Shown here one piece after another: positions 220 to 12,920 of a stretch of DNA of 54,126 nucleotides. A model generated the notes under the pieces. The model did no database searches. It worked only from the letters and a program-made list of their open reading frames with translations, and had not been told where the DNA came from. Position numbers and translations under genes: made by a program. The stretch is from Candidatus Omnitrophota bacterium (GTDB lineage Bacteria > Omnitrophota > Gorgyraeia > Gygaellales > Profunditerraquicolaceae). The DNA is taken from positions 1 through 54,126 of the forward strand of contig JBEKSD010000017.1 of assembly GCA_049517335.1 (NCBI GenBank), in the 5' to 3' direction. Numbering within the stretch: position 1 is the stretch's first letter; each line of letters opens with the position of its first letter.

Positions 220-232
220 GTTTTGTTTATTT

Positions 233-1249
233 TTAATTTGTATTCTCCCGGCAGAAATTCAAAAATGTCTCTGCATTTTTTTTGAGGTCATAACTAATGG
301 CAAAGGAATAAGTTCTAGATTGAGACACAGCCTTGACGGTGTTTTTCAACCTGGAAAACAAGACCGGGCTTTTTTTAAGAAACCCCCAAAAGCCTCTTTG
401 AATCAAAAATTCAGCTCCTTCGTATAATCCTATCCCGAAAACACAATTTTCTACAAATTGCTTGAACGCGCTATATTTAGATATTGGCTTAATAAAGGAT
501 CTATTGCCTAAACACCTCACGCCGCAAAATATATACTGGACGCCAAGGGGCTTTTGGGCAATTTTATCTTTGAAAACATCTATATCTATCATATACTTCG
601 GTCTAAAGCCCATTCTTTCAACAAGATGCAAATGCTCATCCGGAATATCCTGTGGTCTATCCTCAGCCAGCACACCGATCCTGATAGGAAAAGGAAGCAT
701 CTGACCAGTAGCATCAAGCAGAGGAGAATCTTCCGATACCAGCTTAACAGCTCCATTTTTAATAAGGTCCAAAAGAAGAGTGGTTTTGCCTCCGCCGCTA
801 GGTAAGAGGATTAAAATGGCTTTGTTGTTGACTTCAAGTCCAAGGCCATGGACCCTGTGGAGACCTCTTAAACCAAGGTTTTGACCAACCAACGCCAGAA
901 TATATAAATAGACGATCTCATGCCTTAAATGCGGCTCAGGACAAAATACCTTATAAATATTTTTACGCCGGTCTATGACAGCTAAACCCCTGCTAAAATA
1001 ATCGATAAAGGTTAGGTCTTTGTATCTATAGCGAATATTGTGATTGGTGTATGAATGTGCCTTGACAGGAGGAAATTGGCTATAATCAGGCGCTTCATTG
1101 GAAATTTCAAAAAATACCTTAGCGGCCACACTGTCGCTTAAAAAAAACGAATAATCTCTCTGTATATTTTGCAGAGTCTCTCTGTCTTGGCAATTTACTT
1201 CTATGCCAAAGCCGTAAAAAGAAAACTTGCATGTGTAAAGAATATCCAT
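233..1249 (-). CDS. HPr-kinase-like P-loop protein
   Basis: 338 aa; HGLGL...LPSGGGKTT Walker A followed by LVSED, typical of HprK-related kinases. Confidence 0.55.
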   Translation of the reverse strand: MDILYTCKFSFYGFGIEVNCQDRETLQNIQRDYSFFLSDSVAAKVFFEISNEAPDYSQFPPVKAHSYTNHNIRYRYKDLTFIDYFSRGLAVIDRRKNIYKVFCPEPHLRHEIVYLYILALVGQNLGLRGLHRVHGLGLEVNNKAILILLPSGGGKTTLLLDLIKNGAVKLVSEDSPLLDATGQMLPFPIRIGVLAEDRPQDIPDEHLHLVERMGFRPKYMIDIDVFKDKIAQKPLGVQYIFCGVRCLGNRSFIKPISKYSAFKQFVENCVFGIGLYEGAEFLIQRGFWGFLKKSPVLFSRLKNTVKAVSQSRTYSFAISYDLKKNAETFLNFCRENTN

Positions 1250-1270
1250 TTTAAAAATACTCTATTCCGT

Positions 1271-2143
1271 TTAATATCTTTTGGCCATTGCCCATAATAA
1301 CCCCGCCCTCCAGGAAAGCTCAGACACAAGGATAAAACAGGCCTCACCTACTGGTCTTTTTATAAATTGAAACAGCATCCAAAATGGAAATACTAGCCAA
1401 TTCTTCAGGTGCATACTCTCGAACATAATATCGTTTCTAACAAAACCACTTTTTTTGTATTTCCTATAGATCTGAAAAGACCAAAAAGCCCGAACAAAGT
1501 TTGTTTTTATTGTGCTTTTTAGAGACGTGCGATGAAAATGCCCTACCCTTACAAGAGGAAGATAGCGTATCCTATTTTTCATGGTGATTCTTATACCAAG
1601 GTCCAGGTCATCCATCACGTTAATCTCAGAGTCAAACATCAGTTCTTTCATCAGTTTTTCTCTTATTGCAGAATTTTTTGTATCAATTGTAGAGGTATAT
1701 TCTTCATAGCCACAACGTTGCATATAAAGCTGGTCTCTTTTCTGAATATTTTTTGTCCAGTAATTCTTTACCAAGTCCTCTTCGAAACCAGCGGTTGCAT
1801 CCTCGCCCTCAAGCCGTATAGGCCGGGTAATCTCTTCGATCCAGCAATACGGACAGACGCAATCCGCATCCGTAAAGATAAGGATATCCCCCCGGACTAG
1901 CCTGACTCCTTCGTTTCTAGCAACCGCTGTTGAACGTCTTTCGGCAAAAGCATATATTACTCTCCCTTCATTTTTTTTAAAACTGTATATGATCTCCTTG
2001 GTTTTATCCGTGGAGTTGTTATCCACGACAATAACTTCGTAATTCTTATATGATTGGTTTAAAACGGAGTTTAAACATATCCGCAATGTTTTTTCCCCAT
2101 TATAGACCGGAATAATCACAGAAACCTTTGGCTCAGGTTCCAC
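1271..2143 (-). CDS. Glycosyltransferase family 2
   Basis: VSVIIPVYN, VVDNNSTD and FTDAD motifs. Confidence 0.92.
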   Translation of the reverse strand: MEPEPKVSVIIPVYNGEKTLRICLNSVLNQSYKNYEVIVVDNNSTDKTKEIIYSFKKNEGRVIYAFAERRSTAVARNEGVRLVRGDILIFTDADCVCPYCWIEEITRPIRLEGEDATAGFEEDLVKNYWTKNIQKRDQLYMQRCGYEEYTSTIDTKNSAIREKLMKELMFDSEINVMDDLDLGIRITMKNRIRYLPLVRVGHFHRTSLKSTIKTNFVRAFWSFQIYRKYKKSGFVRNDIMFESMHLKNWLVFPFWMLFQFIKRPVGEACFILVSELSWRAGLLWAMAKRY

Positions 2144-2321
2144 AGAAACCTTCTATCTGTTCTTTGATTTTTTTTATGAAAACTCCTGTGTCAAATTTCT
2201 TTGCTTGTTCTATGTAAGCATCTTTATACTTTTGAATATCTTTCGCCATCGCCTTTATAGCACCAACTAATTTATCAACATTGATATCATCGATGAGTTT
2301 TCCTGTAGCCTGCCCGTGCAA
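2133..2321 (-). pseudogene. C-terminal remnant of a GT4-type glycosyltransferase
   Basis: G..TG.L...L..AI...AKKFD...F resembles a GT4 C-terminus; overlaps the GT2 start; no intact N-terminal part upstream. Confidence 0.5.
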
Positions 2322-2429
2322 ATATTAGGTATAATTATACCCTCCGTTTCTGCGATGAGGTTCGAAGCTATTTCAGAAATTCACAAGCCACACTATAACA
2401 TAAAATCTTCAGTCCGCAAATGATTTAAG

Positions 2430-2660
2430 GCACCATGCATTGGCCGCTGGCTTCCAACTAATGCAGTGCGGGTTCGGCTCGGCTTGGGGCTGGCGGCTGG
2501 GCGACGGCGGCCGCCAGCCCCAGCATCCTCGCTTCAAGTCGTAATTAGCGCAGGCTCGTTCGCTATGCCGCAATCCCCACAGGAGGTGGGGCACTTGTCC
2601 ACCAAATAGGGCAAGGTGCAACAAATAAAAACTCGGCGGTGCGGCATGCCGAGCCTCTTG
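2430..2660. other. GC-rich multi-hairpin element (candidate structured RNA or DNA site)
   Basis: Perfect IR TGGGGCTGGCGGC 2485-2497/2510-2522, long-range pairs 2552-2558/2650-2656 and 2565-2572/2640-2647, and hairpins 2575-2591 and 2591-2619, all within AT-rich surroundings. Confidence 0.5.
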
Positions 2661-2916
2661 CAATAAAACATCGGTAATTTCTTCTTTAACTTTGACGAAG
2701 GCTACCGCAGGAAACCTGATGCAAAAATCACCCCAAATAAAAACTCCACCCAAAACCAACACCCAAGCCAAAGATGAAGTCAAAGAAAGCAAAAAAAGAA
2801 AATTAATAAAAATAACGCACCAATCCTCCAGACAGAGAAAAACAGGGTTGGAAATGACTAAAAAGGAGTTGCTTAAAACTCAGGTTTTTGTAATTTTTAG
2901 ACTCACAATTTTGGAA

Positions 2917-2963
2917 TTTGTGGTAGAATATCTTGCAGAGGGTTTTTGTTTGGAGTAAAATAA
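2917..2963 (-). repeat. Partial cassette-junction repeat (half hairpin), left end of the array
   Basis: TGTGGTAGAATATCTTGCAGAGGGTTTTTGTTTGGAGTAAAATAA matches the right half of the 3386-3430 junction; left arm and core are missing. Confidence 0.75.
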
Positions 2964-2983
2964 TATAACAAAAAGGAGGAGAG

Positions 2984-3145
2984 ATGAGGATATTTTTTGC
3001 TATCCTTTTATTTTTATATGCTGCTTGGCAGATATTTACTTTCGTAGGTGCTCCTAATAAAGGGCAGGCAATAGGGCAAATAATTTGGGCTTTATTGGCA
3101 ATCGCAGGTGGAATATATTTAGTGAGAAAGGTCAAGAGCAAATAA
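2984..3145 (+). CDS. Small two-TM membrane protein, 53 aa (cassette gene, absent from the ORF track)
   Basis: AGGAGG RBS then MRIFFAILLFLYAAWQIFTFVGAPNKGQAIGQIIWALLAIAGGIYLVRKVKSK*; flanked by junction repeats. Confidence 0.75.
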   Translation: MRIFFAILLFLYAAWQIFTFVGAPNKGQAIGQIIWALLAIAGGIYLVRKVKSK

Positions 3146-3260
3146 TTCTCCATACAGTTTCTCCGCCTCTTCCGTAGCACAAAAAGTTCTTCCCGCCAAA
3201 AAGAGTCGGGATTTTGCTAAACAAAAGATTAAGGTTCTCAAAAACTCGTCCAATAGGAAA
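3119..3260 (-). repeat. Inverted recombinase-tail repeat (type A) with a 51-nt in-frame insertion
   Basis: Minus strand reads FLLDEF[LRTLIFCLAKSRLFLAG]RTFCATEEAEKLYGELFALDLSH*; homologous to 5409-5492. Confidence 0.75.
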
Positions 3261-3284
3261 TAGGGCAAATTAGTGTAAATTTAG

Positions 3285-3430
3285 CTAAATTAACGCAATT
3301 TCCTTTGAAAGGTCATAAGAGAGGATAGCTTCCTTACTCATTAAAAAGTTATTAAACTCGTCCAATAGGGAGAGATTGACTTCCTAACCCTCTGTGATAG
3401 AATATATTGCAGAGGTTTTTTTGCTTGGAA
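3285..3430 (-). repeat. Inverted cassette junction: 33-bp hairpin (3386-3418), 11 bp, core CTCTCC (3374-3369) and type C tail
   Basis: Near-identical to the reverse complement of 5360-5430; tail reads LSLLDEFNNFLMSKEAILSYDLSKEIALI*. Confidence 0.85.
3376..3403 (+). promoter_or_regulatory. Sigma70-like promoter inside the junction, facing the TPR gene
   Basis: TTGACT-16 bp-TAGAAT with TG extended -10; the same motif is on the minus strand at 5380-5407 and 7438-7465. Confidence 0.6.
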
Positions 3431-3450
3431 TAAAAAACGAGGAGAAAAAG

Positions 3451-4731
3451 ATGAAACTCCAGAGTTCCAAAATAATGATGTTTATTTTAATAGGAGTATT
3501 ATTTTTAAGCGTTTCTTCTGTTTTTGCCGAAACTATTCTCCTTAAAACAGGAAAAACTATAGAAGGCAAAATTATTGAGAAAACCGATAAATACATCAAG
3601 ATAGACATAGCAGGAGTATCTGTGCCTTATTTTTTAAATGAGATTGATACTATTGATGGAAAGCAACTAAGCGCATCAAAAGAAATATCTACAGCTACTC
3701 ATGTTCCCTCAGAGAAAACGCTTGAGGTTAATTCCGGAGTTAATAATAACGAAGCTAAATCTTACTATGATCGTGGAGTTACCTATGCCACAGCAGGTAA
3801 CTTTAATCAAGCTATCGGATACTTTAATAAAGCGATAGAATTAAAACCTGACTATGCCGATGCTTGGGGTGGCAGAGGCATGTCTTATTCTTCGAAAGGC
3901 GACTTTGACCAAGCCTTATCTGATTTTAATAAAGTGATAGAGATTAATCCCGAATCTGCCAAAGCTTATTACTGGATAGGAGTTATTTACGGCAGGAAGG
4001 GGGATTCAGATAGAGCTATTTCTGCATTTAACAAGGCAATAGAAAGAGATTCTAAGCACGCAGAGCCTTACGTCAATCGCAGTCTCGCCTATTTTTACAA
4101 GCGGGAATACGATAAGGCCTGGGAAGATGTGCATAAAGCAGGGGAGTTGGGATTCAAGGTAAATCCTAAATTTATTGAAGATTTAGAAAAAGCTTCCGGA
4201 AAAGGGAATATCAGGAGTTCATCTATGGAAGAGAAAGAAGTTCATACTAGAAGCGATGCAGGTGCGCATTTAAGTTACGCAGAAGATTATTTAAAGGCTA
4301 TGCAACCTCAAAAAGCACTAAAAGAATTTCAAAAGGCTTCAGAGATAGACCCGAATAACGCCATAGCTTATGTAGGCATAGGCCACGTCTATATGCTTTT
4401 GAAAGAGAAAGAAAAAGCTTTGGCTAATTTTCAAAAAGCAATCAATATGGCTCCTAGCGAACCTGAAATTTACCTGCGCATGGGCATAGTTTATGCTTCT
4501 TTGCATGAACATGAAAAAGCAATTGAAAATATGACGAAAGCAATCTCTTTAAACCCTAATTATGCTAAGGCATACTTAAGTCTTGGTTTCCTTTACCGTG
4601 AAAGTAAAGAATACGAAAAAGCTAAGGGAAATTTTCAAAAAGCTAGAGAACTGTATCAGAATTTAGGTGAGAAACAGGCGGTTCAAAATACAGATAAACT
4701 TATTAACGAGCTTTCTCTCGGGCAACAATAG
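3451..4731 (+). CDS. Secreted tetratricopeptide-repeat protein (cassette gene)
   Basis: GAGGAG RBS before ATG 3451; signal peptide ending VFA; many TPRs (A..Y..RG..Y...G.F.QAI..FNKAIEL.P). Confidence 0.9.
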   Translation: MKLQSSKIMMFILIGVLFLSVSSVFAETILLKTGKTIEGKIIEKTDKYIKIDIAGVSVPYFLNEIDTIDGKQLSASKEISTATHVPSEKTLEVNSGVNNNEAKSYYDRGVTYATAGNFNQAIGYFNKAIELKPDYADAWGGRGMSYSSKGDFDQALSDFNKVIEINPESAKAYYWIGVIYGRKGDSDRAISAFNKAIERDSKHAEPYVNRSLAYFYKREYDKAWEDVHKAGELGFKVNPKFIEDLEKASGKGNIRSSSMEEKEVHTRSDAGAHLSYAEDYLKAMQPQKALKEFQKASEIDPNNAIAYVGIGHVYMLLKEKEKALANFQKAINMAPSEPEIYLRMGIVYASLHEHEKAIENMTKAISLNPNYAKAYLSLGFLYRESKEYEKAKGNFQKARELYQNLGEKQAVQNTDKLINELSLGQQ

Positions 4732-4817
4732 AGAATTAAAAAAGTATTCTCGTCTAGTTAAATAAGGAAATTCAAGTGATTTTTGGTGATGAAGAATTAG
4801 CAAACTAAAGGAGTAGT

Positions 4818-4986
4818 TTAAACAACCATAACCAGTTCTTTATACAGTTTATCCCCCTCCTTTTCGTAGCACAAAAAGTTCTAACTTCGTTCAACAGGAC
4901 AAATTAGTATAAATTAGCTGAATTAGCGCAAATTCCTTTGAAAGGTCATAAAAGAGGGCAGCTTCCGTACTGATTAGAAAGTCAAA
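4818..4986 (-). repeat. Degenerate inverted type C plus type A tails (second copy of the 3146-3350 block)
   Basis: 4890-4980 matches 3263-3350 (CAAATTAGT...TTCCTTTGAAAGGTCATAA.AGAGG..AGCTTCC.TACT.ATTA.AAAGT); 4830-4882 matches 3146-3190; the type A tail is frameshifted. Confidence 0.8.
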
Positions 4987-5070
4987 CTCCCCCTATATGA
5001 CACGTTTCGCAACTGGCTGATGACAGGGGAGGCTGAGGGAATATGTAAAGAACTGGCTATGATTACTTAG
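4987..5070 (+). repeat. Junction core CTCCCC plus type B tail; meeting point of the two array arms
   Basis: Reads LPLYDTFRNWLMTGEAEGICKELAMIT*; highly similar to 6879-6962. Confidence 0.85.
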
Positions 5071-5121
5071 ACTGCTCCTCTACTTGAGCTAATCACTTAA
5101 AGCAACTATTTTCTGTTTCGT

Positions 5122-5307
5122 TCATTTTTTATTTTTGTTTCTCAACACAATCCAGATTCCTATTACAATTAGGATTCCGCAGATTACAAGAGCAGCTGAA
5201 GATTTTGGACCAATAAGAAATAATGTATGCTTAATACTTTTATATATCGTAACGCTTATTAAAACCAAAAAACTGAATAAAATCAAAAATATACCAGTTG
5301 TTCGCAT
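5122..5307 (-). CDS. Small two-TM membrane protein, 61 aa (cassette gene)
   Basis: Two hydrophobic segments; GGGAGAGG RBS; lies between junctions. Confidence 0.75.
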   Translation of the reverse strand: MRTTGIFLILFSFLVLISVTIYKSIKHTLFLIGPKSSAALVICGILIVIGIWIVLRNKNKK

Positions 5308-5354
5308 TTTCCTCTCCCTTTTTAATTATACCTCTTTCCATTTCAAAATGGTAT

Positions 5355-5492
5355 AAAAAACAAAAACCCTCTACAATATATTCTATCACAGAGGGTTAGG
5401 AAGTCAATCTCCCCATAATGGACGAGTTTAGAACTTTTTATGCTACGGAAGAGGTAGAGAAACTATGCCAAGAACTGGCTATGGTTACTTAA
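5355..5492 (+). repeat. Cassette junction: hairpin 5365-5397, 11 bp, core 5409-5414 and type A tail
   Basis: AACCCTCTACAA-9-TCACAGAGGGTT; tail reads LPIMDEFRTFYATEEVEKLCQELAMVT*. Confidence 0.9.
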
Positions 5493-5958
5493 ACTGATCC
5501 TTTACTTTGGGACGGGTGAAGAAATAAATCACGCAAATTGCAAAACCAATATCAATAGCCCAAGCTAATATAGCTGAAGTCCACAATAGTGAAGAGTGAA
5601 AATGTTGCGAAATTGTCGGATTCATAGCCGTCGTTTTTATAGTTTGTTGGTGAATAAAATCAGGTATGTTCTTTAAAACAAAAAAAGGTAGTTGTATAAT
5701 ATAATCAAGAATAACAAGAACCGATAGAAATACGGCAATCTTACGAAAAATATCTTTTAGCCATAATATTCCTACGCCTGAAATAGCCCCCAATATTAAT
5801 AATAGCTTCATAATACAATCTCTTACTATTATTACCGACTCTGGCAATGGCTTCAAAAGAACTGAATAAGAAGATATTCCTACGGGTAATTGAACTAATG
5901 AGCCTAAAATCATTAAAATTCCAAATACTATTATTCCCACCGACCTTTTTTTCTCCAT
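5485..5958 (-). CDS. Four-TM membrane protein (cassette gene), related to 6952..7386
   Basis: Hydrophobic segments; ends FFTRPKVKDQFK*; stop overlaps the junction tail. Confidence 0.8.
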   Translation of the reverse strand: MEKKRSVGIIVFGILMILGSLVQLPVGISSYSVLLKPLPESVIIVRDCIMKLLLILGAISGVGILWLKDIFRKIAVFLSVLVILDYIIQLPFFVLKNIPDFIHQQTIKTTAMNPTISQHFHSSLLWTSAILAWAIDIGFAICVIYFFTRPKVKDQFK

Positions 5959-5974
5959 CTTATCCCCCCTTTTC

Positions 5975-6123
5975 TTTTATTTTACCCCAAACAAAAACTC
6001 CTTGCAACATTTTTTATTGCAAGGGGTTAGAATTAGTGGCTCTCCCTATATGACGCATTTCGCAACTGGTGCATGACGGAGGAGGCAGAGAAATTGTACA
6101 AAGAACTGGCTGTGATTATTTAA
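5975..6123 (+). repeat. Cassette junction: hairpin 5996-6028, 11 bp, core (TGG)CTCTCC 6040-6045 and type B tail
   Basis: AACTCCTTGCAA-9-TTGCAAGGGGTT; tail reads (W)LSLYDAFRNWCMTEEAEKLYKELAVII*. Confidence 0.9.
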
Positions 6124-6800
6124 AAAGCAAAATTCAGGCTTCCGGCTATAGCCGTTGCGTCAAAAAGTTGCCCTTCTATATTAAACCATACTTTTTTGCT
6201 TAAAGGAATATCAGCTCCGATAATCAACCCTACGCTTTTACCTAAATCCGATTTTTCTAATTTTCTTGTGCCATTTGTCCAGTGGATATTATCCATTCGC
6301 GACCATCGCGTACCTATATACGGTGTAATTATAAAAAGTTCGCGCGATATAAGGCAGGAAAATTGCCAGTCATCCAGTACGGCTTTATGTTTTGAACCAT
6401 CGACCGATACGGAATAGGGATGCACGCTGATATGCTGGAATCCAAAAACCACTTTTGTTTTTTCGCTGTTATAAAGCCTTACTCGGAAACCATACCCGCC
6501 CCCTAGAAAAGTGGGGTAATTTATGTCGCCGCCGGTCCCAGAACGCTGTTTTATATTCCCCGCGCCACCTTTTAAGTCTATAGAGAGCCAATCAAAAACC
6601 CCGTATGATAAAAGAAAAAAATTCTGGAGGCTGTGAATCTTTCCGTAGTCTTTTTCTAATTGCCGCTTAAAAACCGAATATGTCTGGAGGCTGGCAAGAA
6701 ATTGGCTCTTTTCAGGCATCCTCGAACCATAACACGGTGCGGCATAGCTCGGACTCGACACACAAAAACAAATTAAAAAACACAGTAAAACCTTCTTCAT
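6120..6800 (-). CDS. Secreted, putative outer-membrane beta-barrel protein (cassette gene)
   Basis: Signal peptide, alternating aromatic/Gly strands and C-terminal Phe (LNFAF*). Confidence 0.65.
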   Translation of the reverse strand: MKKVLLCFLICFCVSSPSYAAPCYGSRMPEKSQFLASLQTYSVFKRQLEKDYGKIHSLQNFFLLSYGVFDWLSIDLKGGAGNIKQRSGTGGDINYPTFLGGGYGFRVRLYNSEKTKVVFGFQHISVHPYSVSVDGSKHKAVLDDWQFSCLISRELFIITPYIGTRWSRMDNIHWTNGTRKLEKSDLGKSVGLIIGADIPLSKKVWFNIEGQLFDATAIAGSLNFAF

Positions 6801-6814
6801 TTCATCCTCAGGCT

Positions 6815-6962
6815 TTTATTTTACCCCAAACAAAAACTCCTTGTAACATTTTTTGCTGCAAGGAGTTAAAAGATTTTTCTCCCCCTGTATGACGCATTTC
6901 GCAACTGGCTGATGACAGGGGAAGCCGAGGAAATATGTAAAGAACTGGCTGCTATTGCTTAA
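6815..6962 (+). repeat. Cassette junction: hairpin 6835-6867, 11 bp, core CTCCCC(CT) 6879-6886 and type B tail
   Basis: AACTCCTTGTAA-9-CTGCAAGGAGTT; AAAGATTTTTCTCCCCCT versus AAAGATTGGCTCCCCCT at the recombinase/tRNA junction; tail reads LPLYDAFRNWLMTGEAEEICKELAAIA*. Confidence 0.9.
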
Positions 6963-7386
6963 ACTGCTCTTTAATCGTTGGACGAGTGAGCTCATAAGTA
7001 ATAAAGGCCAAATACAACATACTAAGACCAAACGTCTTAAAAAATATGGCCAGTGGTCCCCAGATAACAACATTAGCCCCGCGTATTCTTAAAACTTTCA
7101 AAAACATATCAATATTTACCAAAGGAACAAAGATTATTCCCAAGAGTGGGCCAGCTATTCCTGCAACCGAGAACACAATTGCCGATAACCGCATCTTCCA
7201 ATTTAATCTCAGCACTCCATAAGCCAATATCCCATATAATACAAGAAAACCACCCCATCGCAATAGCTCCACCGTTCTCCAAATAACTTTTTCTTCGGAT
7301 AATAGGAGATACCAAGCAAGAACAAACAAAGGATATATAAAAAGCAATGCACCTACTAATTTAACTTCTCTTGATGTCTTTTTCAT
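6952..7386 (-). CDS. Four-TM membrane protein (cassette gene), related to 5485..5958
   Basis: Hydrophobic; ends ELTRPTIKEQFKQ*. Confidence 0.8.
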   Translation of the reverse strand: MKKTSREVKLVGALLFIYPLFVLAWYLLLSEEKVIWRTVELLRWGGFLVLYGILAYGVLRLNWKMRLSAIVFSVAGIAGPLLGIIFVPLVNIDMFLKVLRIRGANVVIWGPLAIFFKTFGLSMLYLAFITYELTRPTIKEQFKQ

Positions 7387-7412
7387 GTCTATACCTTTTC
7401 CCTCGCATTTAC

Positions 7413-7553
7413 CATAAATAAAAACCCTCTATAATATATTCTATCACAGAGGGCTAAGAAGTCAAACTCCCCATCGTGGACGAGTTTAGAACTACTTTAT
7501 TAGCAATTCCTCAAGAGTTTTTATACCACGAATTGCTGGAATCATCAATATAA
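7413..7553 (+). repeat. Junction and left att site of the recombinase element: hairpin 7423-7455, 11 bp, core 7467 and displaced recombinase C-terminus
   Basis: CTCCCCATCGTGGAC is 13/15 identical to tRNA-end CTCCCCCTCGAGGAC (12848-12862); reads LPIVDEFRTTLLAIPQEFLYHELLESSI*. Confidence 0.88.
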
Positions 7554-7588
7554 ATAGCGTATAATTGTTTTAAAGAGGTGATGAAAAA

Positions 7589-8359
7589 GTGAAAGAAATA
7601 GATACCCTTATTCCTGTAGATTCAACTAAGATTGATAAATTGCATAATGATTTATCAGAAAAACTAAAATATTTATTTTCTTCTCCGGATTTTCAAAAAG
7701 AAGTAAACAAGATTAGAGGCAAATTCAATATTCGGGCTTACGGAATAAAAAGATTCTTGTCCGTTGGAGATAAAGTTTCAAAATTAGAAGAAAGAAAAAA
7801 TCTGGAAAAGTTTAATAATTTATTATCTCTTATGTATGATAATAGAGATTTGAAGGCACTCCATATCAAGAAAAAAAGCAGAAAAGACGCTTATCAGAAA
7901 TCGATAAGAAAAATTAGGATGATGTTTAATCTTCCGATAAGATTTCAAAAGTCATTAGCCGACGCTTTTATCCCATACGGAAGATTGCCTAATATTTATA
8001 GTCATTCTGTTTCATGCATCATAAGAGTTTACGACGATTGCGGAGAGAAAAGATTATTTATTGAAGTATTTGGCGATACTAAAAAACAGGATGTCGTCCG
8101 TGCTTGGAAGTATGTAGAATCAATCAAAACTTTGCCAGATGTTAAAGACATTAAGAAAAAGAAACACAAATTTAACGGAGGGCACTTATTTAGATATAAA
8201 GACTATTACAAACATAGATTGATAGATTCTGGCCAGAAACCAGTTGATATAATGGGCTTCCAGAAATCTCAAGATGAGTTTACCGACCTTCCTAACTTCA
8301 GAAAGAATATTTACAAATATAGATACCGAAAGCACTTAAATAAATATTACAGCAAATAG
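7589..8359 (+). CDS. Hypothetical basic protein, possibly the element regulator
   Basis: 256-aa Lys-rich ORF with GAGG upstream; no motif recognised. Confidence 0.6.
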   Translation: MKEIDTLIPVDSTKIDKLHNDLSEKLKYLFSSPDFQKEVNKIRGKFNIRAYGIKRFLSVGDKVSKLEERKNLEKFNNLLSLMYDNRDLKALHIKKKSRKDAYQKSIRKIRMMFNLPIRFQKSLADAFIPYGRLPNIYSHSVSCIIRVYDDCGEKRLFIEVFGDTKKQDVVRAWKYVESIKTLPDVKDIKKKKHKFNGGHLFRYKDYYKHRLIDSGQKPVDIMGFQKSQDEFTDLPNFRKNIYKYRYRKHLNKYYSK

Positions 8360-8399
8360 CGATTTGCTGTAATTGGCAGCCTCAAATAAATATAGTAAG

Positions 8400-8430
8400 C
8401 TCCTTGTTGTAAGCGACAAGGAGTTTTTTA
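8400..8430 (+). terminator. Intrinsic terminator
   Basis: CTCCTTGTTG-TAAG-CGACAAGGAG followed by TTTTTT. Confidence 0.7.
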
Positions 8431-8431
8431 T

Positions 8432-8638
8432 TTGAACATTTTAACTAAAGAACAGGAAATTCAAGAATGGTCAAAGCTCTATGGAAGGCAAATCTCCGAG
8501 GAGGAATTTGCGGAGATATGCTTTAACCTTAATGGATTTTTCTCAACCTTAAAAGAATGGGCTGATGAAGAAAGGATGAAGTTAGAAAATGAGCGAACTT
8601 GTAGTGTCGGAAATTCAGATAATTCCAGTCAAACCTAA
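8432..8638 (+). CDS. Small hypothetical protein
   Basis: 68 aa, TTG start; W...YG..IS.EE..EI..NL.GFF pattern resembles small proteins of integrated elements. Confidence 0.55.
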   Translation: MNILTKEQEIQEWSKLYGRQISEEEFAEICFNLNGFFSTLKEWADEERMKLENERTCSVGNSDNSSQT

Positions 8639-8909
8639 AGACGGTCTTGTTTCTTTTGCCTCTTGCGTTATAAATAATCAATTGTATCTTGGTAACATAG
8701 CAATCTATTCATCCCTTTCTTCCCCCGATGGCTTTCGCCTCGTTTATCCTTCACGAGCAGCAAACGGAACGCAATTAAGCATAGCGCATCCAATCACAAA
8801 AGAAGCTGGTCTTGCGATTCAAAAACAAATTGTTGAAAGATACATAAAACTTATGGAAGATTTAACGAAAGGAGATAGCGCAAATGGACGAGAGCCGCCA
8901 AATTCTTAG
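8589..8909 (+). CDS. SpoVG-family nucleic-acid-binding protein
   Basis: SEIQI.P...GL..FAS......L....IAI...F.L.YPSR...AHPITKE matches the SpoVG pattern. Confidence 0.75.
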   Translation: MSELVVSEIQIIPVKPKDGLVSFASCVINNQLYLGNIAIYSSLSSPDGFRLVYPSRAANGTQLSIAHPITKEAGLAIQKQIVERYIKLMEDLTKGDSANGREPPNS

Positions 8910-9192
8910 AGATTTTGCAAAATCCGGATCAATGTTTTTTAAACTCGAAGACGGGGATGAGAAAACGGTTAGATTTCTTTCTTTTGAAAAAGCACCTAAT
9001 AACTTTGACGGAGGTAAAACTACTCTTATCCGCTATCACTTAGAGGTTGATGGCGTAAAAAAGTTATGGGATAGGCCTTCGCATAAATTAGCAGAGCAAA
9101 TGGCAGAAATTCCTTTTGGCGCACTGATTAAAATTAAAAGAACAGGCCAAAAAAATCAAACTAAGTATTTTATAGAAGAGATTAAAGAATGA
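8884..9192 (+). CDS. Putative phage-type ssDNA-binding (OB-fold) protein
   Basis: FFKLEDGDEKTVRFL and IKIKRTG...TKY resemble phage SSB-like proteins. Confidence 0.5.
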   Translation: MDESRQILRDFAKSGSMFFKLEDGDEKTVRFLSFEKAPNNFDGGKTTLIRYHLEVDGVKKLWDRPSHKLAEQMAEIPFGALIKIKRTGQKNQTKYFIEEIKE

Positions 9193-9377
9193 GATTTTCC
9201 AAGCCCCTGTCATTTTTTCATCGCTCTGACCTGCTTACTCTTGTCAACGATGACCTATACAAGCATTCAGGGGCTTGGATATATTTCAAGGAGTTAGTTA
9301 TTGAGTATGCTTGGTAGGGATAAAGAGTAAGAGTATAAGCTAAAGACAATAGTTATCTATATAGAATAAAGAGGTGA

Positions 9378-9593
9378 TTGATGTTGACTCCGGTTAAAGC
9401 CATCAGGGCAAAGTGCCTTGACTGTTCTGGTTTCCAGCCTTCGGAGGTTAGGCGCTGCGAAAGTGAGGATTGCCCTCTCTTTCCTTACCGGCTCGGCAAG
9501 AATCCAAACAGGGTTGGCATTAAAAAATTAGGTTATTCTGATGAAAAAGAGCCTACTCAGCTAAAGATTACTACTCAAACAGGGCTTGTTTGA
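9378..9593 (+). CDS. Small Cys4 zinc-binding phage-type protein
   Basis: TPVKAIRAKCLDCSG.....VRRC....CPLFPYRLGKNP. Confidence 0.7.
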   Translation: MMLTPVKAIRAKCLDCSGFQPSEVRRCESEDCPLFPYRLGKNPNRVGIKKLGYSDEKEPTQLKITTQTGLV

Positions 9594-9668
9594 TTAACTC
9601 TGCTTAGACAGTATTAGCAAGATAGATAATTAGAAAAACTTGAGTTGAGCAAGACAAAAGGACAAAAA

Positions 9669-9818
9669 ATGAGCATAAAAAACAGGTTAAAGAAGGTTGA
9701 GAGTAAAATTATACAAGAAGATAAAGTTAATAATTTATCAATTGCGGAGATGCTAAAAGAGGCTAGAGAACGGCATTTTAAACCGGTAGTATCTAAGGTC
9801 GAAAATAAGCCAGATTAA
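9669..9818 (+). CDS. Small hypothetical protein, 49 aa (absent from the ORF track)
   Basis: AGGA RBS then MSIKNRLKKVESKIIQEDK...; N-terminus resembles that of 10246..10506. Confidence 0.55.
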   Translation: MSIKNRLKKVESKIIQEDKVNNLSIAEMLKEARERHFKPVVSKVENKPD

Positions 9819-9820
9819 AT

Positions 9821-9850
9821 ATTTTCTAACAGTTTCTAACGATTTTTAAC
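9821..9850 (+). repeat. Three tandem 10-bp direct repeats
   Basis: ATTTTCTAAC AGTTTCTAAC GATTTTTAAC. Confidence 0.7.
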
Positions 9851-9868
9851 GAATTTCGAGGGTTTAGT

Positions 9869-10249
9869 ATGAATACAGAATATAAATTAACTACCCGACA
9901 GCTTGTAGTAATAAATCATCTGATTTGCGCATCTTCTATTGAAGAGGTTTCCCGAAACGCAAAAGTCAGTAAGCCTACACTCTACAAATGGCTCAAGGAT
10001 GAAGCTTTTAAAGCGGAGTTAAAGCGTCAAAGGGATGAAGTTGTTAAGGAAAGTTTAAATCGTCTAAAACACGCAACAATGAAAGCAACAGAAGGACTCA
10101 TTAAACTAATAGATTCTTCTCGGCCAGAGTTACGTAGATGGGTTTGTAAAGATATTATTGACTATGCGCTAAAGAGCGTAGAGCTTGAGGACATTGAGGA
10201 AAGGTTAGACAAAGTGGAAAGGGTTATTTTAGGGGGTCTTTATAAATGA
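9869..10249 (+). CDS. HTH protein, terminase-small-subunit-like
   Basis: SIEEVSRNAKVSKPTLYKWLKDEAFKAEL HTH followed by a helical oligomerisation-like region. Confidence 0.6.
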   Translation: MNTEYKLTTRQLVVINHLICASSIEEVSRNAKVSKPTLYKWLKDEAFKAELKRQRDEVVKESLNRLKHATMKATEGLIKLIDSSRPELRRWVCKDIIDYALKSVELEDIEERLDKVERVILGGLYK

Positions 10250-10506
10250 GTAATCTTAAAACAAGGCTTAAAAGAATGGAAGATAAAATTGGGTTATCCG
10301 AAAACGAGAGTTACTGGTTTATTATATATGGATATAAGACTTTATCTGACTGTGAGCGTAAAGGAATTGCTTATTATTGTAAGGGAAATATTGGCGGAGG
10401 AATAATAATCTGGAGGATGCAAGGAAAGAAATTTATAGAGCAAATCGATTCTAATTCCGAACGAGGCCAGAAGATTCTTGAGGAAAATGGGTATAAAAAA
10501 TGTTAA
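10246..10506 (+). CDS. Hypothetical protein
   Basis: 86 aa; start overlaps the upstream stop. Confidence 0.6.
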   Translation: MSNLKTRLKRMEDKIGLSENESYWFIIYGYKTLSDCERKGIAYYCKGNIGGGIIIWRMQGKKFIEQIDSNSERGQKILEENGYKKC

Positions 10507-10534
10507 ATTTTACTCCGAATAGTAGTATAATAAT

Positions 10535-10730
10535 GCTGTGCTTCAGAGGAACAATCTCCAGAGGCATATACAATTTGGTTCATCGCTATACCTTAAAGAG
10601 GATATAAGGCCTCTAACTTCTAAGTAAGGTAAGCTGCACCACTGCCCGTAAGGGCAGGGGGAAATGCAGTCTTATCGGATTTACTTAGAAGTTGCCGGTA
10701 GGAATATGCGCCCCCTTTTAATTGGGGGGT
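10535..10730 (+). ncRNA. Candidate structured leader or ncRNA
   Basis: 79-nt hairpin 10615-10693 with a 13-bp perfect basal stem, capped by CTGCCC-GTAA-GGGCAG; additional smaller hairpins; TATAAT upstream at 10526. Confidence 0.45.
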
Positions 10731-10752
10731 AGAGAAGCTTAAGAGGGGGAAT

Positions 10753-11337
10753 ATGAAAAAACTTATTATATTTTTATTTATTATTCTTACTATTGCATTT
10801 TGCCCCATTCTCGCATTAGCCGATAGCGATACATTTTGGCAAGAACAAAAAGCGGAAATGGATATATTCAATACTCAAATGGCTCAATTGAAGGCTATGA
10901 CTGAACAGGTGCAGAGCAATAGAAGACAGGAACAGAGCAACAAAGAATGGGAGTTATACAAAGCATATCTTAATGGGGATTACAGCCCCGAAGCAGAGAC
11001 AGCATTTTATAATAAAGTAGGTCAGCCAACAGAAATCGCAATTAAAAACGCCTTGCCAGAAATAAAAAAGGCATATAATTTGCCAACGGGGAGCGGGAGC
11101 GACCTATACGCAAGTGAGATTTGGCTAAATAATTATTTCTTAAATTCAGGGGTTAGAACAAAGGAAGAACACGATAAAGTTGAAAAAACCTTGACCCGTG
11201 ATTTTTGTTTAGTAGCTAATCTTGAAACTCTCGCTATGAGGTTAGAATACGGGATAATAACAAAAGATGAATTTAATAAAGAGAGAAAAGAGGAAATTTA
11301 TGACTACAAAAATAAAAGGGGGAATTATTCAGAATGA
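10753..11337 (+). CDS. Secreted hypothetical protein
   Basis: GAGGGGG RBS; signal peptide ending ALA. Confidence 0.75.
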   Translation: MKKLIIFLFIILTIAFCPILALADSDTFWQEQKAEMDIFNTQMAQLKAMTEQVQSNRRQEQSNKEWELYKAYLNGDYSPEAETAFYNKVGQPTEIAIKNALPEIKKAYNLPTGSGSDLYASEIWLNNYFLNSGVRTKEEHDKVEKTLTRDFCLVANLETLAMRLEYGIITKDEFNKERKEEIYDYKNKRGNYSE

Positions 11338-11383
11338 CGAAGGTAAGAGTAAGAGATAGGTCAAAATAAGCCCAGAAAATAAA

Positions 11384-12886
11384 ATGAAATCCATTATCTA
11401 CGCCAGAGTATCAAGTAAAGAACAAGAACAGGAAGGCTACTCTATTCCGGCTCAGTTAAAATTACTAAACGATTACGCCTCAAAGAATGGTTATAAAGTA
11501 GTTAAGGAATTTGTAGATGTAGAGACTGCCAAGCGTGCCGGTAGAGAAAACTTTAACTTGATGATTGAGTTTCTAAAGAAGAATACGGATGTTAAGGCTA
11601 TTCTCTGCGAAAAAACAGATAGGCTTTCAAGGAATTTTAGGGATATTGCTATTCTTGACGACTTGGTTAATCAACAGACTTTAAATATAATTTTGGTTAA
11701 AGAAAATACTACTATTAGTCGAGATTCTAAATCTCACGAAAAATTTATCTTTGGTATTAAAGCGTTAATGGCTAAAAACTATATAGACAATCTCTCCGAA
11801 GAAACCCGTAAAGGTATGATTGAGAAAGCAGAACAAGGCATCTACCCTTCTGCTGCCCCGCTTGGCTATAAGAACTGCGAAGCAAAGAATGACGGAAAGG
11901 TTTTGAAGTATTTAGAAATTGACGAGCAAAGGGCTCCAATACTTCAAAAAGTCTTTAGGATGTATGCAACAGGCGATTATTCTCTGGCTTATCTTACCAA
12001 GCAGGCTTATGAAGAAGGATTGCGTAATAAACGAGGCACTAAAGTATATAAATCAGCAATACACAAGATATTAAAAAATCCCATCTATTACGGTGCTTTC
12101 ATCTGGTATGGCAAGCTATATCAAGGCTCACACCCTGCTCTTGTCTCTAAAGAGCTATTTGACGCAGTGCAAGAGACATTTGAGGCGCAAAACAGGCCTA
12201 AACAGACTAAGAGGCACTTTGCTTATACCGGCCTTATGGTATGCGGTAAGTGTGGATGCGCTATAACTGCGGAGATTAAAAAGGGCAAATATATTTATTA
12301 TCACTGCACGGGATTTAAGGGTAAATGCGGAAATTCTTGGGTGTCGGAAAAAGTATTAGAGGATAAGTTTACGGAGGTAGTCAACAAAATACAAATAGGT
12401 GATGATGTATTAGAAAGAATTAAAAACGCTCTCTTATTAAGCCATAAGGAAGAACGGGAATTTCACGATAAGCGAATGAAAATTCTCCAAGAGCAACACA
12501 ATAAGCTTCAGCACCGCTTAGACCAGATTTACATTGATAAGATAGACAATAAGATTAGCGAGAACTTCTATGATGAAAAGGCTGACGCTTGGCAGGAAGA
12601 ACAAAAGGAATTATTAAGACAGATTGAGAAACATCAGAACTCAAACGCTAATTACTTCGCTCAGGGCGTCCATATTCTAGAACTCTGTAACCGTGCTAAT
12701 AGCTTATACTTACACAATACACCCACAAAAAGAGCTAAACTACTACATTATATACTATCGAACTGCTCTCTTAATGACGCAACTCCATATCCTACATACA
12801 GAAAGCCCTTCGAATTAATTGTCAAAGGGCTCTCATCTAAAGATTGGCTCCCCCTCGAGGACTCGAACCTCGGACCTGGTGGTTAA
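11384..12886 (+). CDS. Large serine recombinase (resolvase, recombinase and zinc-ribbon domains); last 14 codons are antisense to tRNA-Asn
   Basis: YARVSS catalytic Ser, DRLSRN, PLGY, LKNPIYYG, CGKCG...YYHC; ends KDWLPLEDSNLGPGG*. Confidence 0.97.
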   Translation: MKSIIYARVSSKEQEQEGYSIPAQLKLLNDYASKNGYKVVKEFVDVETAKRAGRENFNLMIEFLKKNTDVKAILCEKTDRLSRNFRDIAILDDLVNQQTLNIILVKENTTISRDSKSHEKFIFGIKALMAKNYIDNLSEETRKGMIEKAEQGIYPSAAPLGYKNCEAKNDGKVLKYLEIDEQRAPILQKVFRMYATGDYSLAYLTKQAYEEGLRNKRGTKVYKSAIHKILKNPIYYGAFIWYGKLYQGSHPALVSKELFDAVQETFEAQNRPKQTKRHFAYTGLMVCGKCGCAITAEIKKGKYIYYHCTGFKGKCGNSWVSEKVLEDKFTEVVNKIQIGDDVLERIKNALLLSHKEEREFHDKRMKILQEQHNKLQHRLDQIYIDKIDNKISENFYDEKADAWQEEQKELLRQIEKHQNSNANYFAQGVHILELCNRANSLYLHNTPTKRAKLLHYILSNCSLNDATPYPTYRKPFELIVKGLSSKDWLPLEDSNLGPGG

Positions 12887-12920
12887 CAGCCACTCGCTCT
12901 ACCGACTGAGCTAAGGGGGA
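12845..12920 (-). tRNA. tRNA-Asn(GTT)
   Basis: TCCCCCTTAGCTCAGTCGGTAGAGCGAGTGGCT-GTT-AACCACCAGGTCCGAGGTTCGAGTCCTCGAGGGGGAGCCA; 76 nt with encoded CCA. Confidence 0.97.

Follow-up and report, generated by a model that had tools for sequence, protein, structure and literature searches.

To our knowledge, integrons are the only well-established stockpile of single genes as mobile cassettes, and they rely on a tyrosine recombinase and folded attC sites. The locus described here adjoins a tRNA gene of an uncultured Omnitrophota bacterium and contains small, mostly one-gene modules in a row. It lies in a stretch of 54,126 nucleotides (contig JBEKSD010000017.1 of assembly GCA_049517335.1), the whole of which is called the window below. 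As in integrons (IntI, attI, attC, Pc), the cassettes are small, mostly single-gene and in one orientation, their sites bear palindromes, and new units are expected at one fixed end. Unlike integrons, the locus has neither a tyrosine recombinase nor a fixed platform. Integron cassettes are promoterless and depend on a common Pc, whereas the cassettes here have promoter-like sites of their own; attC is found at the 3' end of the cassette ORF, whereas the palindrome here lies 5' of the cassette gene and corresponds to the tRNA terminator; and the exchange point is a 6-nt core held in common with the tRNA.

In the SCC and SCCmec composite islands of staphylococci, in which CcrAB or CcrC acts at the 3' end of rlmH, a large serine recombinase (LSR) is likewise paired with one chromosomal target at the 3' terminus of a conserved gene, integration restores the target, and tandem cassettes, many of them recombinase-less, are bounded by short direct repeats. 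The likeness is one of layout, Ccr kinship aside: SCC units of 17-26 kb target rlmH, whereas the units here, of 0.4-2 kb with one to three genes, target tRNA-Asn. In addition, each unit here brings a hairpin, read as terminator and promoter, that replaces the tRNA flank, and the LSR ORF itself crosses the site. The cases described in PMC11470126 include cassettes without a recombinase that are excised, singly or combined, by the recombinase of a neighbour. Such excision in trans is thus reported for SCC, whereas for the tandem recombinase-less units here we infer mobilisation in trans.

Tycheposons and the tRNA-linked islands of Prochlorococcus also consist of site-specific elements at tRNA genes. 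In the set described in 10.1101/2020.12.28.424599, 910 of 937 tycheposons use tyrosine recombinases, a minority use an LSR, and many have replication genes. As portrayed there, newer integrations push older ones inward, and partial tRNA copies lie between elements together with degenerate remnants, all of which resembles the present locus. The differences are that the repeat here combines no more than the terminal 6-7 nt of the tRNA with a tail of non-tRNA sequence; that tycheposons carry an integrase and a replication module, whereas the cassettes here have neither and the LSR element has no recognisable replication gene; that the units here are minimal and mostly recombinase-less; and that tycheposon hosts belong to another phylum. 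CIMEs, which by analogy correspond to the MITEs of transposons, keep both recombination ends, have lost the recombinase and occur in tandem with autonomous relatives (accretion). By this analogy the present units appear CIME-like, with ends kept, recombinase lost and accretion next to an autonomous relative. Described CIMEs use tyrosine recombinases and are kilobases long, and we know of no CIME arrays of many one-gene units. Finally, in integration-dependent gene remodelling, such as immunity of the mycobacteriophage BPs type (compare PMC4557955), attP lies within a gene, so that integration alters the C-terminus of the protein. The gene in BPs is the repressor and the recombinase a tyrosine integrase, whereas the part altered here comprises the terminal 27-28 codons of the serine-recombinase gene.

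The tRNA-Asn locus and its LSR element

The tRNA-Asn (GTT) gene occupies 12845-12920 on the minus strand (66 bits in Rfam), and its antisense 3' acceptor end at 12848-12853 reads CTCCCC, the junction core. The tRNA is intact, and CTCCCC at 7467 and 12848 forms a direct repeat around a 5.4-kb LSR-bearing element (7467-12853, plus strand), with the tRNA-borne copy serving as attR. The element contains SpoVG-like, small-terminase-like HTH and SHOCT genes and the LSR (11384-12886, plus strand), for which the domain search returned Resolvase PF00239 (4.4e-26), Recombinase PF07508 (2.3e-18) and Zn_ribbon_recom PF13408 (2.2e-10). No replication gene was recognisable in it. The LSR ORF runs across the core and stops within the antisense tRNA, and the ~60 nt of it that immediately precede the tRNA fold into a hairpin. 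On the other side, attL (7423-7553, plus strand) comprises a hairpin (7423-7455), a spacer with TTGACT, the core (7467-7472) and a second type of tail, in which the LSR frame stays open for 28 codons. Orthologous elements were found at tRNA-Asn in L038 (78-81% nucleotide identity) and on contig C24 of G111 (81%), with matching attL in both.

The LSR provides the sole PF00239 match on contig C17, and PF00589 (tyrosine recombinase) is absent from that contig, the genome's matches being confined to contigs C1 and C3. Members of the LSR family use tRNA 3' ends as targets: at 48 of 95 family loci the LSR gene is overlapped at its 3' end by an antisense tRNA, a hairpin falls within the last 62 nt of the LSR ORF at 41 of 48 loci, and a matching tRNA-derived C-terminus is present in many LSR homologues.

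Anatomy of the junctions and the cassette array

Five junctions have one geometry, a hairpin followed by exactly 11 nt and then by CTCCCC or CTCTCC, and the array in the window comprises four direct and two inverted units, each with one ORF antisense to the tail. The direct part begins with a core plus tail lacking a hairpin on its left (4987-5070, plus strand), beyond which lies g61 (5122-5307, minus strand; two hydrophobic segments). The junction at 5365-5492 (plus strand; hairpin 5365-5397, spacer 5398-5408, core 5409-5414, tail to 5492) is followed by g157 (5485-5958, minus strand), which encodes a multi-pass membrane protein and overlaps the tail end with its last codons. The next junction, at 5996-6123 (plus strand; hairpin 5996-6028, spacer, core CTCTCC at 6040, tail to 6123), precedes g226 (6120-6800, minus strand), the product of which has a signal-peptide-like N-terminus and a weak match to OMP beta-barrels; that at 6835-6962 (plus strand; hairpin 6835-6867, spacer, core 6879, tail to 6962) precedes g144 (6952-7386, minus strand), with four hydrophobic segments and a C-terminus resembling that of g157. 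The attL of the LSR element follows, giving core-to-core distances of 422, 631, 839 and 588.

The inverted arm starts in the window with a truncated hairpin (2919-2951, plus strand) missing its left stem arm, followed by cargo gene g53 (2984-3145, plus strand; 53 aa, two hydrophobic segments) and a degenerate tail (3146-3262, minus strand) with a ~50-nt insertion and no intact core. Next come a core (3368-3374) with a 29-codon tail variant (3288-3374, minus strand; repeat D4 copy 1) and its 11-nt spacer and hairpin (3375-3418, plus strand; hairpin proper 3386-3418). The -35-like TTGACT of this module and the TGaTAGAAT in its loop are promoter-like for the adjacent gene of a TPR-repeat protein (3451-4731, plus strand), which has an N-terminal hydrophobic leader. 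Repeat comparison further revealed a frameshifted tail (4801-4900, minus strand) and D4 copy 2 (4911-4982, minus strand), a 5'-truncated tail variant head-to-head with the core at 4987; the 72-nt repeat 3278-3349/4911-4982 is this inverted tail variant. The breakpoints of the arm (about 2917 and 4983) lie away from cores, so some rearrangements here were not site-specific.

The junction repeats are real and far above chance, with nhmmer E-values of 1e-13 to 1e-43, and are 62-91% identical to one another over 78-150 nt; since a metagenome assembly has to span such repeats, the contig order may contain errors. The genome has more copies outside the window, at the end of its contig C24. Three modules make up a junction: the hairpin and an 11-bp spacer, together the native 3' flank of tRNA-Asn for this family; CTCCCC, with the core copy covering only the last 6-7 nt of the tRNA; and an 84-nt tail related to the stretch from which tRNA-targeting LSRs, when un-integrated, derive their C-terminal extension. 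Given this three-part make-up, every junction is an attL-type site.

The coordinates thus bear out the initial annotation as to the geometry of the five junctions, the further core plus tail at 4987 and the spacing of the cores, as well as the match of the core to the tRNA-Asn 3' end, the single antisense gene per unit (the ORF list agrees) and the LSR as the only nearby recombinase. Its statement that a ~84-bp tail is common to the junctions holds for most of them; at 7467, in the attL of the LSR element, only the first ~27 nt are common to the other tails. A membrane or secreted location had also been proposed for all six cargo proteins, and a crude hydropathy scan agrees in detecting N-terminal or multiple hydrophobic segments in each. 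The genome's sole copy of the conserved gene g226 is in a cassette; 87 of the order's 234 genomes have this gene in single copy, and in 10 of 11 further genomes it is located away from arrays, a distribution that counts against our preferred explanation.

The hairpin as tRNA flank and putative terminator and promoter

The relatives argue against reading the palindrome as attC-like: it appears to be the tRNA's own terminator, with a promoter for the cassette gene. In G199 the real tRNA is directly followed 3' by hairpin, spacer and core; among tRNA-Asn loci of the family with at least 500 nt of flank, the hairpin is present at 23 of 24; and the hairpin type of the window recurs in G010, G013, G023 and G002. 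The hairpins are imperfect palindromes with covarying stems at every junction, have a T-run after them on the gene strand and include promoter hexamers. TTGACT-16-TGaTAGAAT on the gene strand at three junctions (10 of 12 matches) gave the top three hits of the scan, and the remaining two have 9/12 sites; in the 5365 junction the promoter-like TTGACT-16-TAGAAT lies at 5407-5380 (minus strand). Terminator-like hairpins were called at the same places. On consensus matches, the module reads as a terminator with an embedded sigma-70-like promoter; with a predicted promoter for each gene, the cassettes would not be promoterless. The module would end the upstream transcript and supply a promoter for the unit's gene, so that each cassette may be self-expressed.

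The tail and the LSR reading frame

The tail continues the LSR reading frame in phase across the core. An HMM of six array tails, searched against 121 proteins, matched the extreme C-terminus of the LSR homologue P0051 (E 2e-4) and gave five weaker matches at the same C-terminal position, and the junction model aligns weakly to the LSR 3' end (nhmmer E 0.0075 to 0.06). The coding signal of the tails is weak, with in-frame pN/pS of 0.31-0.81 and similar values in other frames. These sequence comparisons show the tail as the post-core segment of the LSR ORF and the junction arms as kin to the ends of the LSR element. A unit (tail, cargo, hairpin, spacer, core) therefore looks like an LSR element minus the LSR with both ends kept. 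Both the earlier assignment of the junctions to LSR att-type sites and that of the units to minimal non-autonomous elements fit these data.

Recurrence in relatives

The array anatomy is conserved across the order. The tail was found in 56 of 234 genomes, with at least two copies in 14. Among the 33 tails at 11 fetched array loci, 22 have a CTYYYC core, and 19 of these a strong upstream hairpin; 31 of 33 ORFs of at least 80 aa at array loci run antisense to the tails. A conserved hotspot with the order recR/ABC-F/tRNA-Asn/array/LytB was evident, in which arrays of relatives differ in cargo and order. Their occurrence is sporadic, with tails at 1 of 42 loci anchored on ABC-F. Some tails are degenerate, frameshifted or truncated, some units consist of a tail alone, and in G000, G073 and G105 the whole array is inverted relative to its flanks.

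The 11 fetched array loci all lack an LSR. In five array genomes the LSR family is represented, on other contigs, by no more than distant (31-33%) or fragmentary members in four cases and by none in the fifth, and an LSR of this type lies beside the tRNA at only 3 of 29 tRNA-Asn loci. The search of relatives suggested in the initial annotation as a test recovered tRNA-Asn arrays of variable cargo and order, which supports the annotation on this point, and no LSR accompanied the 11 fetched arrays. The cargo of relatives includes a transporter, a methyltransferase, a glycosyltransferase and a hydrolase, and this mixture limits the proposed diversification of the cell surface to the present window.

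Movement of cassettes between genomes

Over 1263 bp, an SBF-transporter cassette of G177 matches that of G013 at 88.3% identity; the two genomes belong to different genera, and their flanking LytB and ABC-F regions agree at 64% and 70%, respectively. The homology ends at the 6-nt core on both sides, the adjoining hairpins differ in type, and the cassette's own hairpin travels along; the cassette adjoins the tRNA in G013 and is internal in G177. Limits exactly at the cores point to cassettes moving as discrete units, and the alignment shows core-to-core transfer of a discrete cassette between genera, in keeping with the cassette shuffling that had been postulated. In addition, a 129-aa cassette shared by G199 and G177 shows 84% identity (core genes 72-78%) and lies on opposite sides of a DUF5674 cassette in the two genomes, and cassette order differs between congeneric genomes. 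Neither a circular junction nor a clean cassette-loss scar was found in the Logan contigs of four runs, which break at junctions. Five joints at depth 8.87 in Logan contigs probably come from one further array contig.

Proposed mechanism and alternative explanations

It is probable that the region is the tRNA-proximal part of an island to which one unit after another was added by site-specific integration at the tRNA-Asn 3' end. The attB would consist of the last 6 nt of the tRNA and its native 3' flank (terminator hairpin and 11-nt spacer), and integrating units would bring an attP-like site of identical layout, namely hairpin, spacer, core and tail. In autonomous elements, the terminal codons of the LSR gene would contain the hairpin, and in the excised state the last 27-28 LSR residues would be encoded by the tail; one-gene cassettes would be deletion derivatives in which only the two ends and one or few cargo genes remain. 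Recombination at CTCCCC would insert a unit between the old flank and the tRNA, leaving an attL-type junction, while a complete attB would be re-formed beside the tRNA out of the unit's own hairpin and spacer. With attB rebuilt, the next unit could integrate and the array would grow at the tRNA end; in G199 and G013 hairpin, spacer and core abut the tRNA with cassettes behind, that is, the integration site is rebuilt. Integration and excision of cassettes are presumably catalysed by a member of this LSR family that elements like the one at 7467-12853 provide in trans. We know of no LSRs that recombine attL-type sites with attB without accessory factors, which counts against this explanation; the hairpin arm is a candidate for a P-type arm. 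Also on the negative side are the lack of an LSR at the 11 fetched array loci and its rarity beside tRNA-Asn, the sporadic occurrence of arrays, the negative outcome for circles and scars in the Logan contigs, the weak coding signal of the tails, the off-core breakpoints of the inverted arm and the possible errors in contig order.

At a low but appreciable probability, the units could instead be immobile leftovers of full LSR elements that integrated serially and had their interiors randomly deleted, their regular look being survivorship because the hairpin was retained as terminator and promoter. The match of cassette ends to LSR element ends, the decayed and tail-only copies, the lack of an LSR in most arrays and the weak coding signal of the tails would all be expected; however, LSR gene fragments are absent between cargo and hairpin in the four direct units, the SBF cassette crossed genera core-to-core without an LSR and is the tRNA-proximal unit in G013, and congeneric genomes differ in cassette order. 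That transfer also bears on a reading to which we assign a low probability, in which the junctions are portable promoter-terminator units that act as homology anchors, RecA-dependent exchange following DNA uptake adds, removes and reshuffles cassettes, and the LSR element is one more tenant of the hotspot. Junction identities of this degree, the whole-array inversions, the off-core breakpoints of the inverted arm and the persistence of arrays without an LSR speak for it, whereas the stop of SBF homology exactly at the 6-nt core on both sides with neighbouring hairpins of different types, the identity of the core with the tRNA end that LSRs of this family use, and the relationship of the tail to the post-core LSR ORF speak against it.

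That a gene and its regulatory flank were duplicated locally in tandem and then diverged, with no mobility involved, is very unlikely and is disfavoured. Such duplication would account for the C-terminus common to g157 and g144, into whose 3' ends the repeat extends, but the remaining cargo genes are mutually unrelated, the same architecture with other cargo occurs in many genera, and one cassette crossed genera. Covarying-stem palindromes at every junction could also suggest single-stranded folding into attC-like sites recombined by an unrecognised enzyme. We consider this hardly credible, as the same hairpin stands 3' of the genuine tRNA in relatives, precedes a T-run on the gene strand and encloses promoter hexamers, no tyrosine recombinase is present on the contig, and the shared cassette is delimited at the core, outside the hairpin.

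Implications

Serial integration at the tRNA end is thus preferred, and our overall verdict is that of a tandem island, presumably LSR-built, that is both SCC-like and tycheposon-like, with integron-like miniaturisation. A more far-reaching proposal, possible but doubtful when all its parts are taken jointly, is that this Omnitrophota family has a genuine serine-recombinase cassette system. One-to-three-gene units, whose ends would serve as LSR attP, tRNA terminator and cassette promoter, would insert one by one at tRNA-Asn with the target rebuilt each time, and LSRs that are transient cassettes would drive intergenus exchange. The swap of the LSR end between a hydrophobic, Ala/Val-ending tail (excised) and the tRNA-encoded end (integrated) would then be a switch of stability or direction; a regulatory role of this swap is speculation. 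LSRs serve as genome-engineering tools, and a natural one with a target regenerated at each insertion and an integration-dependent C-terminus, if real, would be of applied interest.

The layout would allow integron-like collection and exchange of genes. The problem of insertion at a tRNA end would, if the scheme is true, be solved by each unit supplying a new tRNA terminator together with a promoter for its own gene. If the LSR does move the units, the cassette strategy would have evolved a second time, by other chemistry, in a poorly known phylum of small genomes.

Structure of the junctions and units

The repeated junctions proposed in the initial annotation are real, being recovered by a self-repeat search, by alignment and by nhmmer (E 1e-13 to 1e-43), and their geometry was reproduced as well: a 33-nt hairpin, a spacer of exactly 11 nt, a core of CTCCCC or CTCTCC and a tail of ~84 nt, with the core matching the acceptor end of tRNA-Asn at 12848-12853. 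Direct junctions with a hairpin have their cores at 5409, 6040, 6879 and 7467 on the plus strand, a further plus-strand core and tail at 4987 lack the hairpin, and an inverted copy has its core at 3368-3374 on the minus strand. A 72-nt repeat (3278-3349, 4911-4982) was considered as a separate element and rejected, as it reads as an inverted variant of the tail. Two more degenerate inverted tails lie on the minus strand at 3146-3262 and 4801-4900, and half a hairpin at 2919-2951; the inverted arm, read on the minus strand, is therefore a regular array of two units, which hold a TPR gene and a 53-aa gene. The breakpoints of this arm (~2917 and ~4983) are situated away from the cores. Each unit contains a single ORF antisense to its tail, as had been claimed, and a simple hydropathy scan shows a hydrophobic leader, or more than one hydrophobic segment, in each of the six ORFs, in agreement with the membrane or secreted cargo suggested earlier.

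Pairs of tails standing back to back, with neither cargo nor hairpin between them, form 'empty' units both in the window (3146-3374 and 4801-4982) and in contig C24 of the same genome and the related loci L149 (9408-9593) and L152 (3995-4165); in genome G199 one tail is followed directly by the hairpin and the tRNA. An Rfam search of the junction returned no family, the sole other match having an E-value of 0.63. The possibility that the tail is a degenerate tRNA was discarded, as it forms no cloverleaf and ARAGORN calls only one tRNA. A BLAST search of one junction against its own genome had pointed to a single locus, and this reading was overturned by the more sensitive nhmmer search.

The hairpin and spacer as part of the tRNA target

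The palindrome is here re-read as the terminator of the tRNA combined with a putative promoter; the same module is found 3' of genuine tRNA-Asn genes. In G199 a genuine tRNA-Asn is followed by 11 nt and then by a hairpin closely resembling those at 6040 and 6879, and the hairpin type of the window adjoins the tRNA in four further genomes (G010, G013, G023 and G002). A flank of 500 nt or more was available for 24 of 29 other tRNA-Asn loci of the family, and in 23 of these 24 the 70-mer beside the tRNA folds at -15 kcal/mol or below; random 60-mers from related loci, an unmatched set, averaged -8.4 kcal/mol. The presence of this module at genuine tRNAs indicates that hairpin, spacer and core are the native left arm of the target site, so that each junction, with its tail, is an attL-type hybrid.

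The junction hairpins fold at -15 to -21 kcal/mol (z-scores -1.9 to -4.5); a T-run comes after each of them on the gene strand, and they were called terminator-like. By consensus matches, the three best promoter-like sites of the region are located in the junctions at 7467, 5409 and 3374, with a -35 element TTGACT inside the 11-nt spacer and an extended -10 element TGaTAGAAT inside the hairpin loop, and the remaining two junctions carry sites matching 9 of 12 consensus positions. At five loci (L170, L181, L185, L187 and L149 ~9600-9700) sequence resembling the 3' end of another tRNA lies in opposite orientation just past the tRNA-Asn hairpin, and this hairpin may be a shared two-way terminator.

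The LSR, its element and the probable origin of the tail

ARAGORN identified one tRNA in the window, tRNA-Asn(GTT) at 12845-12920 on the minus strand. The large serine recombinase (LSR) is a 500-aa ORF (11384-12886) with the three domains of the family, and its last 14 codons are antisense tRNA because the ORF passes through the tRNA 3' end on the opposite strand. That it is the only recombinase nearby was borne out, with no tyrosine recombinase on the contig and no resolvase-domain match other than the LSR itself. An association of the family with tRNA 3' ends was observed at 48 of 95 loci, where an antisense tRNA overlaps the LSR end; these tRNAs are mostly Asn, and also Asp, His, Ser, Ala, Gln and Glu. 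In 41 of the 48 loci the final 62 nt of the LSR ORF reach a folding energy of -10 kcal/mol or lower, with a mean of -18.6 kcal/mol vs -11.9 for internal stretches of the same genes, and the hairpin (12784-12845 in the window, with 47 other loci examined) is situated directly 3' of the tRNA within the coding sequence. This suggests that LSR elements bring a replacement tRNA terminator encoded within the recombinase gene. A model of the junction also gives weak alignments (E 0.0075 to 0.06) at the 3' end of the LSR.

As the LSR ORF crosses its own crossover core, integration swaps its last 27-28 residues for antisense-tRNA codons (window 12790-12886; loci L013-L112). When the LSR frame is followed across the core, the four long tails and that of the metagenome contig L038 each remain open for 27 codons, with their stops at an identical position, and the tail of the element's own left junction at 7467 is open for 28. 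Many of 120 LSR homologues end in antisense-tRNA peptides, and others have a short extension after the same conserved motif. A profile built from six array tails only matched the extreme C-terminus of one homologue, P0051 (E 2e-4 among 121 proteins), with five weaker matches (E 0.56 to 5.3) at the same C-terminal position. The open frames together with these matches indicate that the tail corresponds to the portion of an LSR gene situated past the crossover in its un-integrated (attP) form. Array tails show little coding signal, since their pN/pS of 0.31-0.81 does not surpass that of the other frames, and they are treated here as relics or relaxed copies. Phage relatives of the LSR in IMG/VR, all distant (at most 47% identical), often have, away from tRNAs, an ORF with a hydrophobic end (...AA, ...VA or ...CA; at least nine of the loci listed), and the array tails end in similar residues. 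Such ends are reminiscent of ssrA-like tags, and a role in recombinase stability is speculative.

The LSR element encodes a SpoVG-like protein and a small-terminase-like HTH protein (9869-10249; phrog_2538, E 1e-12, the only informative PHROGs match), has no capsid or replication genes, and may be phage-satellite-like. Orthologous 5-kb elements occupy tRNA-Asn in L038 and in genome G111; in L038 one 221-aa cassette stands behind the element, and its left flank shows no synteny with the window. In L037 a second LSR element of ~3.9 kb (1-4080), with an HNH-like gene and a differing LSR (26% identical to P0001), terminates in hairpin, spacer and core, and the first element type comes after it; the ~3.9-kb element has an inverted ~140-nt copy of its right end at its left end, so the segment may be invertible. 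L050 has an LSR, then three tails, then cargo. Type-1 tails, the kind found at the array junctions, were absent from LSR loci of other tRNAs. A generic attL search with a 16-nt tRNA-end probe had hardly any yield, since no more than 6-7 nt of core are shared.

Distribution of the arrays

Since MAFFT misaligned the hairpins, a peptide profile of the tail (A3) served as the search model in place of a junction covariance model. Of the order's 234 genomes, 56 gave tail matches in a six-frame search; at least two are present in 14 of these, and one genome has nine. Eleven loci from ten genomes were taken for comparison of arrays, none of which (0/11) contains an LSR; three abut tRNA-Asn in the expected orientation. 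A CTYYYC core is present at 22 of their 33 tails and a strong upstream hairpin at 19 of these 22, by a threshold that 33% of random 60-mers also reach. Within the arrays, nearly all ORFs with a length of 80 aa or more run antisense to the tails (31/33). In four of five array genomes the LSR family is represented solely by distant or fragmentary members on other contigs, and the fifth has none.

The arrays are held in a conserved interval, recR / ABC-F / tRNA-Asn / array / LytB, with tRNA and array inverted relative to the flanks in the window's own genome (G000), G073 and G105. The ABC-F side of the window's island, with more junctions, is found at the end of C24: the left flank there comprises dnaX, recR, ABC-F and a PilZ gene, and the array piece at the contig end (13100-13921; 6100-6922 of locus L116) comprises a truncated tail, a 65-aa gene, a full junction, a double tail and an ankyrin-repeat gene. 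The far end of the island is probably represented by this piece, and, with the ABC-F side on C24, positions 1-2917 of the window probably lie within the island. At 1-100 the contig starts in an open frame with an apparent resemblance to a transposase N-terminus, which may explain the break.

The arrays are sporadic. A type-1 tail lies within 1.5 kb of the tRNA at only three of 29 tRNA-Asn loci, an LSR is present at six of the 29 (three being of the window's type), and only one of 42 ABC-F-anchored loci has tails. The tRNA-Asn of many relatives is split at ~35/36 by 230-600 nt, as in most of 18 tRNA-Asn loci of the ABC-F-anchored sample; that of the window is unsplit. In G105 (L151 3737-3939) a group I intron forms the insert, scoring 67.6 bits with RF00028, which exceeds the gathering threshold.

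Movement of cassettes

A cassette with an SBF/ACR3-like transporter is common to G177 and G013, which belong to different genera, at 88.3% identity over 1263 bp, compared with 64% for the LytB region and 70% for the ABC-F region of the flanks. The alignment extends from the first base of one core to the final base of the following core; the hairpins that lie beyond it are of differing types, and its right-hand core is the tRNA itself in G013 and an internal junction in G177. G199 and G177 have a 129-aa cassette in common, at 84% identity (core genes 72-78%), and it has changed sides relative to a DUF5674-pair cassette from one genome to the other. The limits of homology at the cores argue for site-specific exchange there, not for homologous exchange within the junction.

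Nine sequencing runs contain the region, and four were examined as Logan contigs, which break at the junctions; peat and wetland are among the sample sources in which the window occurs. The joints in these contigs, five of which have the equal depth of 8.87, are most readily accounted for by an additional contig rich in junctions, and are not claimable as a circle or a clean cassette loss. Loose ends from the same samples show, by presence only, junction-like sequence fused to other sequence. The OMP-like cargo gene g226 (6120-6800), here a one-gene cassette, is the only copy in its genome; it is a single-copy gene in 87 of 234 genomes of the order, ten of eleven other contexts being outside arrays, and its presence as a cassette is a puzzle.

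Relation to known systems and proposed origin of the cassettes

The closest functional parallel is the SCC composite island, in which CcrAB or CcrC excise tandem cassettes, including recombinase-less ones, singly or together (PMC11470126). Tycheposon islands are alike in their tRNA target, tandem growth and remnants, but differ in having mostly tyrosine recombinases (10.1101/2020.12.28.424599). Three of the four defining features of integrons are either lacking or doubtful in the window's array; no integron-type tyrosine recombinase is encoded on the contig, and the cassettes have promoter-like sites of their own. Literature searches found no paper joining Omnitrophota with serine recombinases and none on such arrays there, and for integron-like serine-recombinase arrays returned integron papers only.

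Autonomous elements and cassettes share their ends and thus have one layout of hairpin, spacer, core and tail, the hairpin being coding sequence in autonomous elements. From this layout, the cassettes look like LSR elements that have lost the recombinase and kept both ends. It is reasonably likely, judging from the sequences, that the arrays are built by site-specific, LSR-type integration at the core. Well-studied LSRs are not known to recombine attL-type sites with attB unless helped; the hairpin arm could conceivably behave as a P-type arm. The earlier proposal of cassettes of a serine recombinase is partly supported, as regards LSR-type att sites and discrete units, given the layout of the ends and the core-to-core limits, with the palindrome now assigned to the tRNA as terminator and putative promoter. 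The system is a new, miniaturised form of LSR-built tandem islands.
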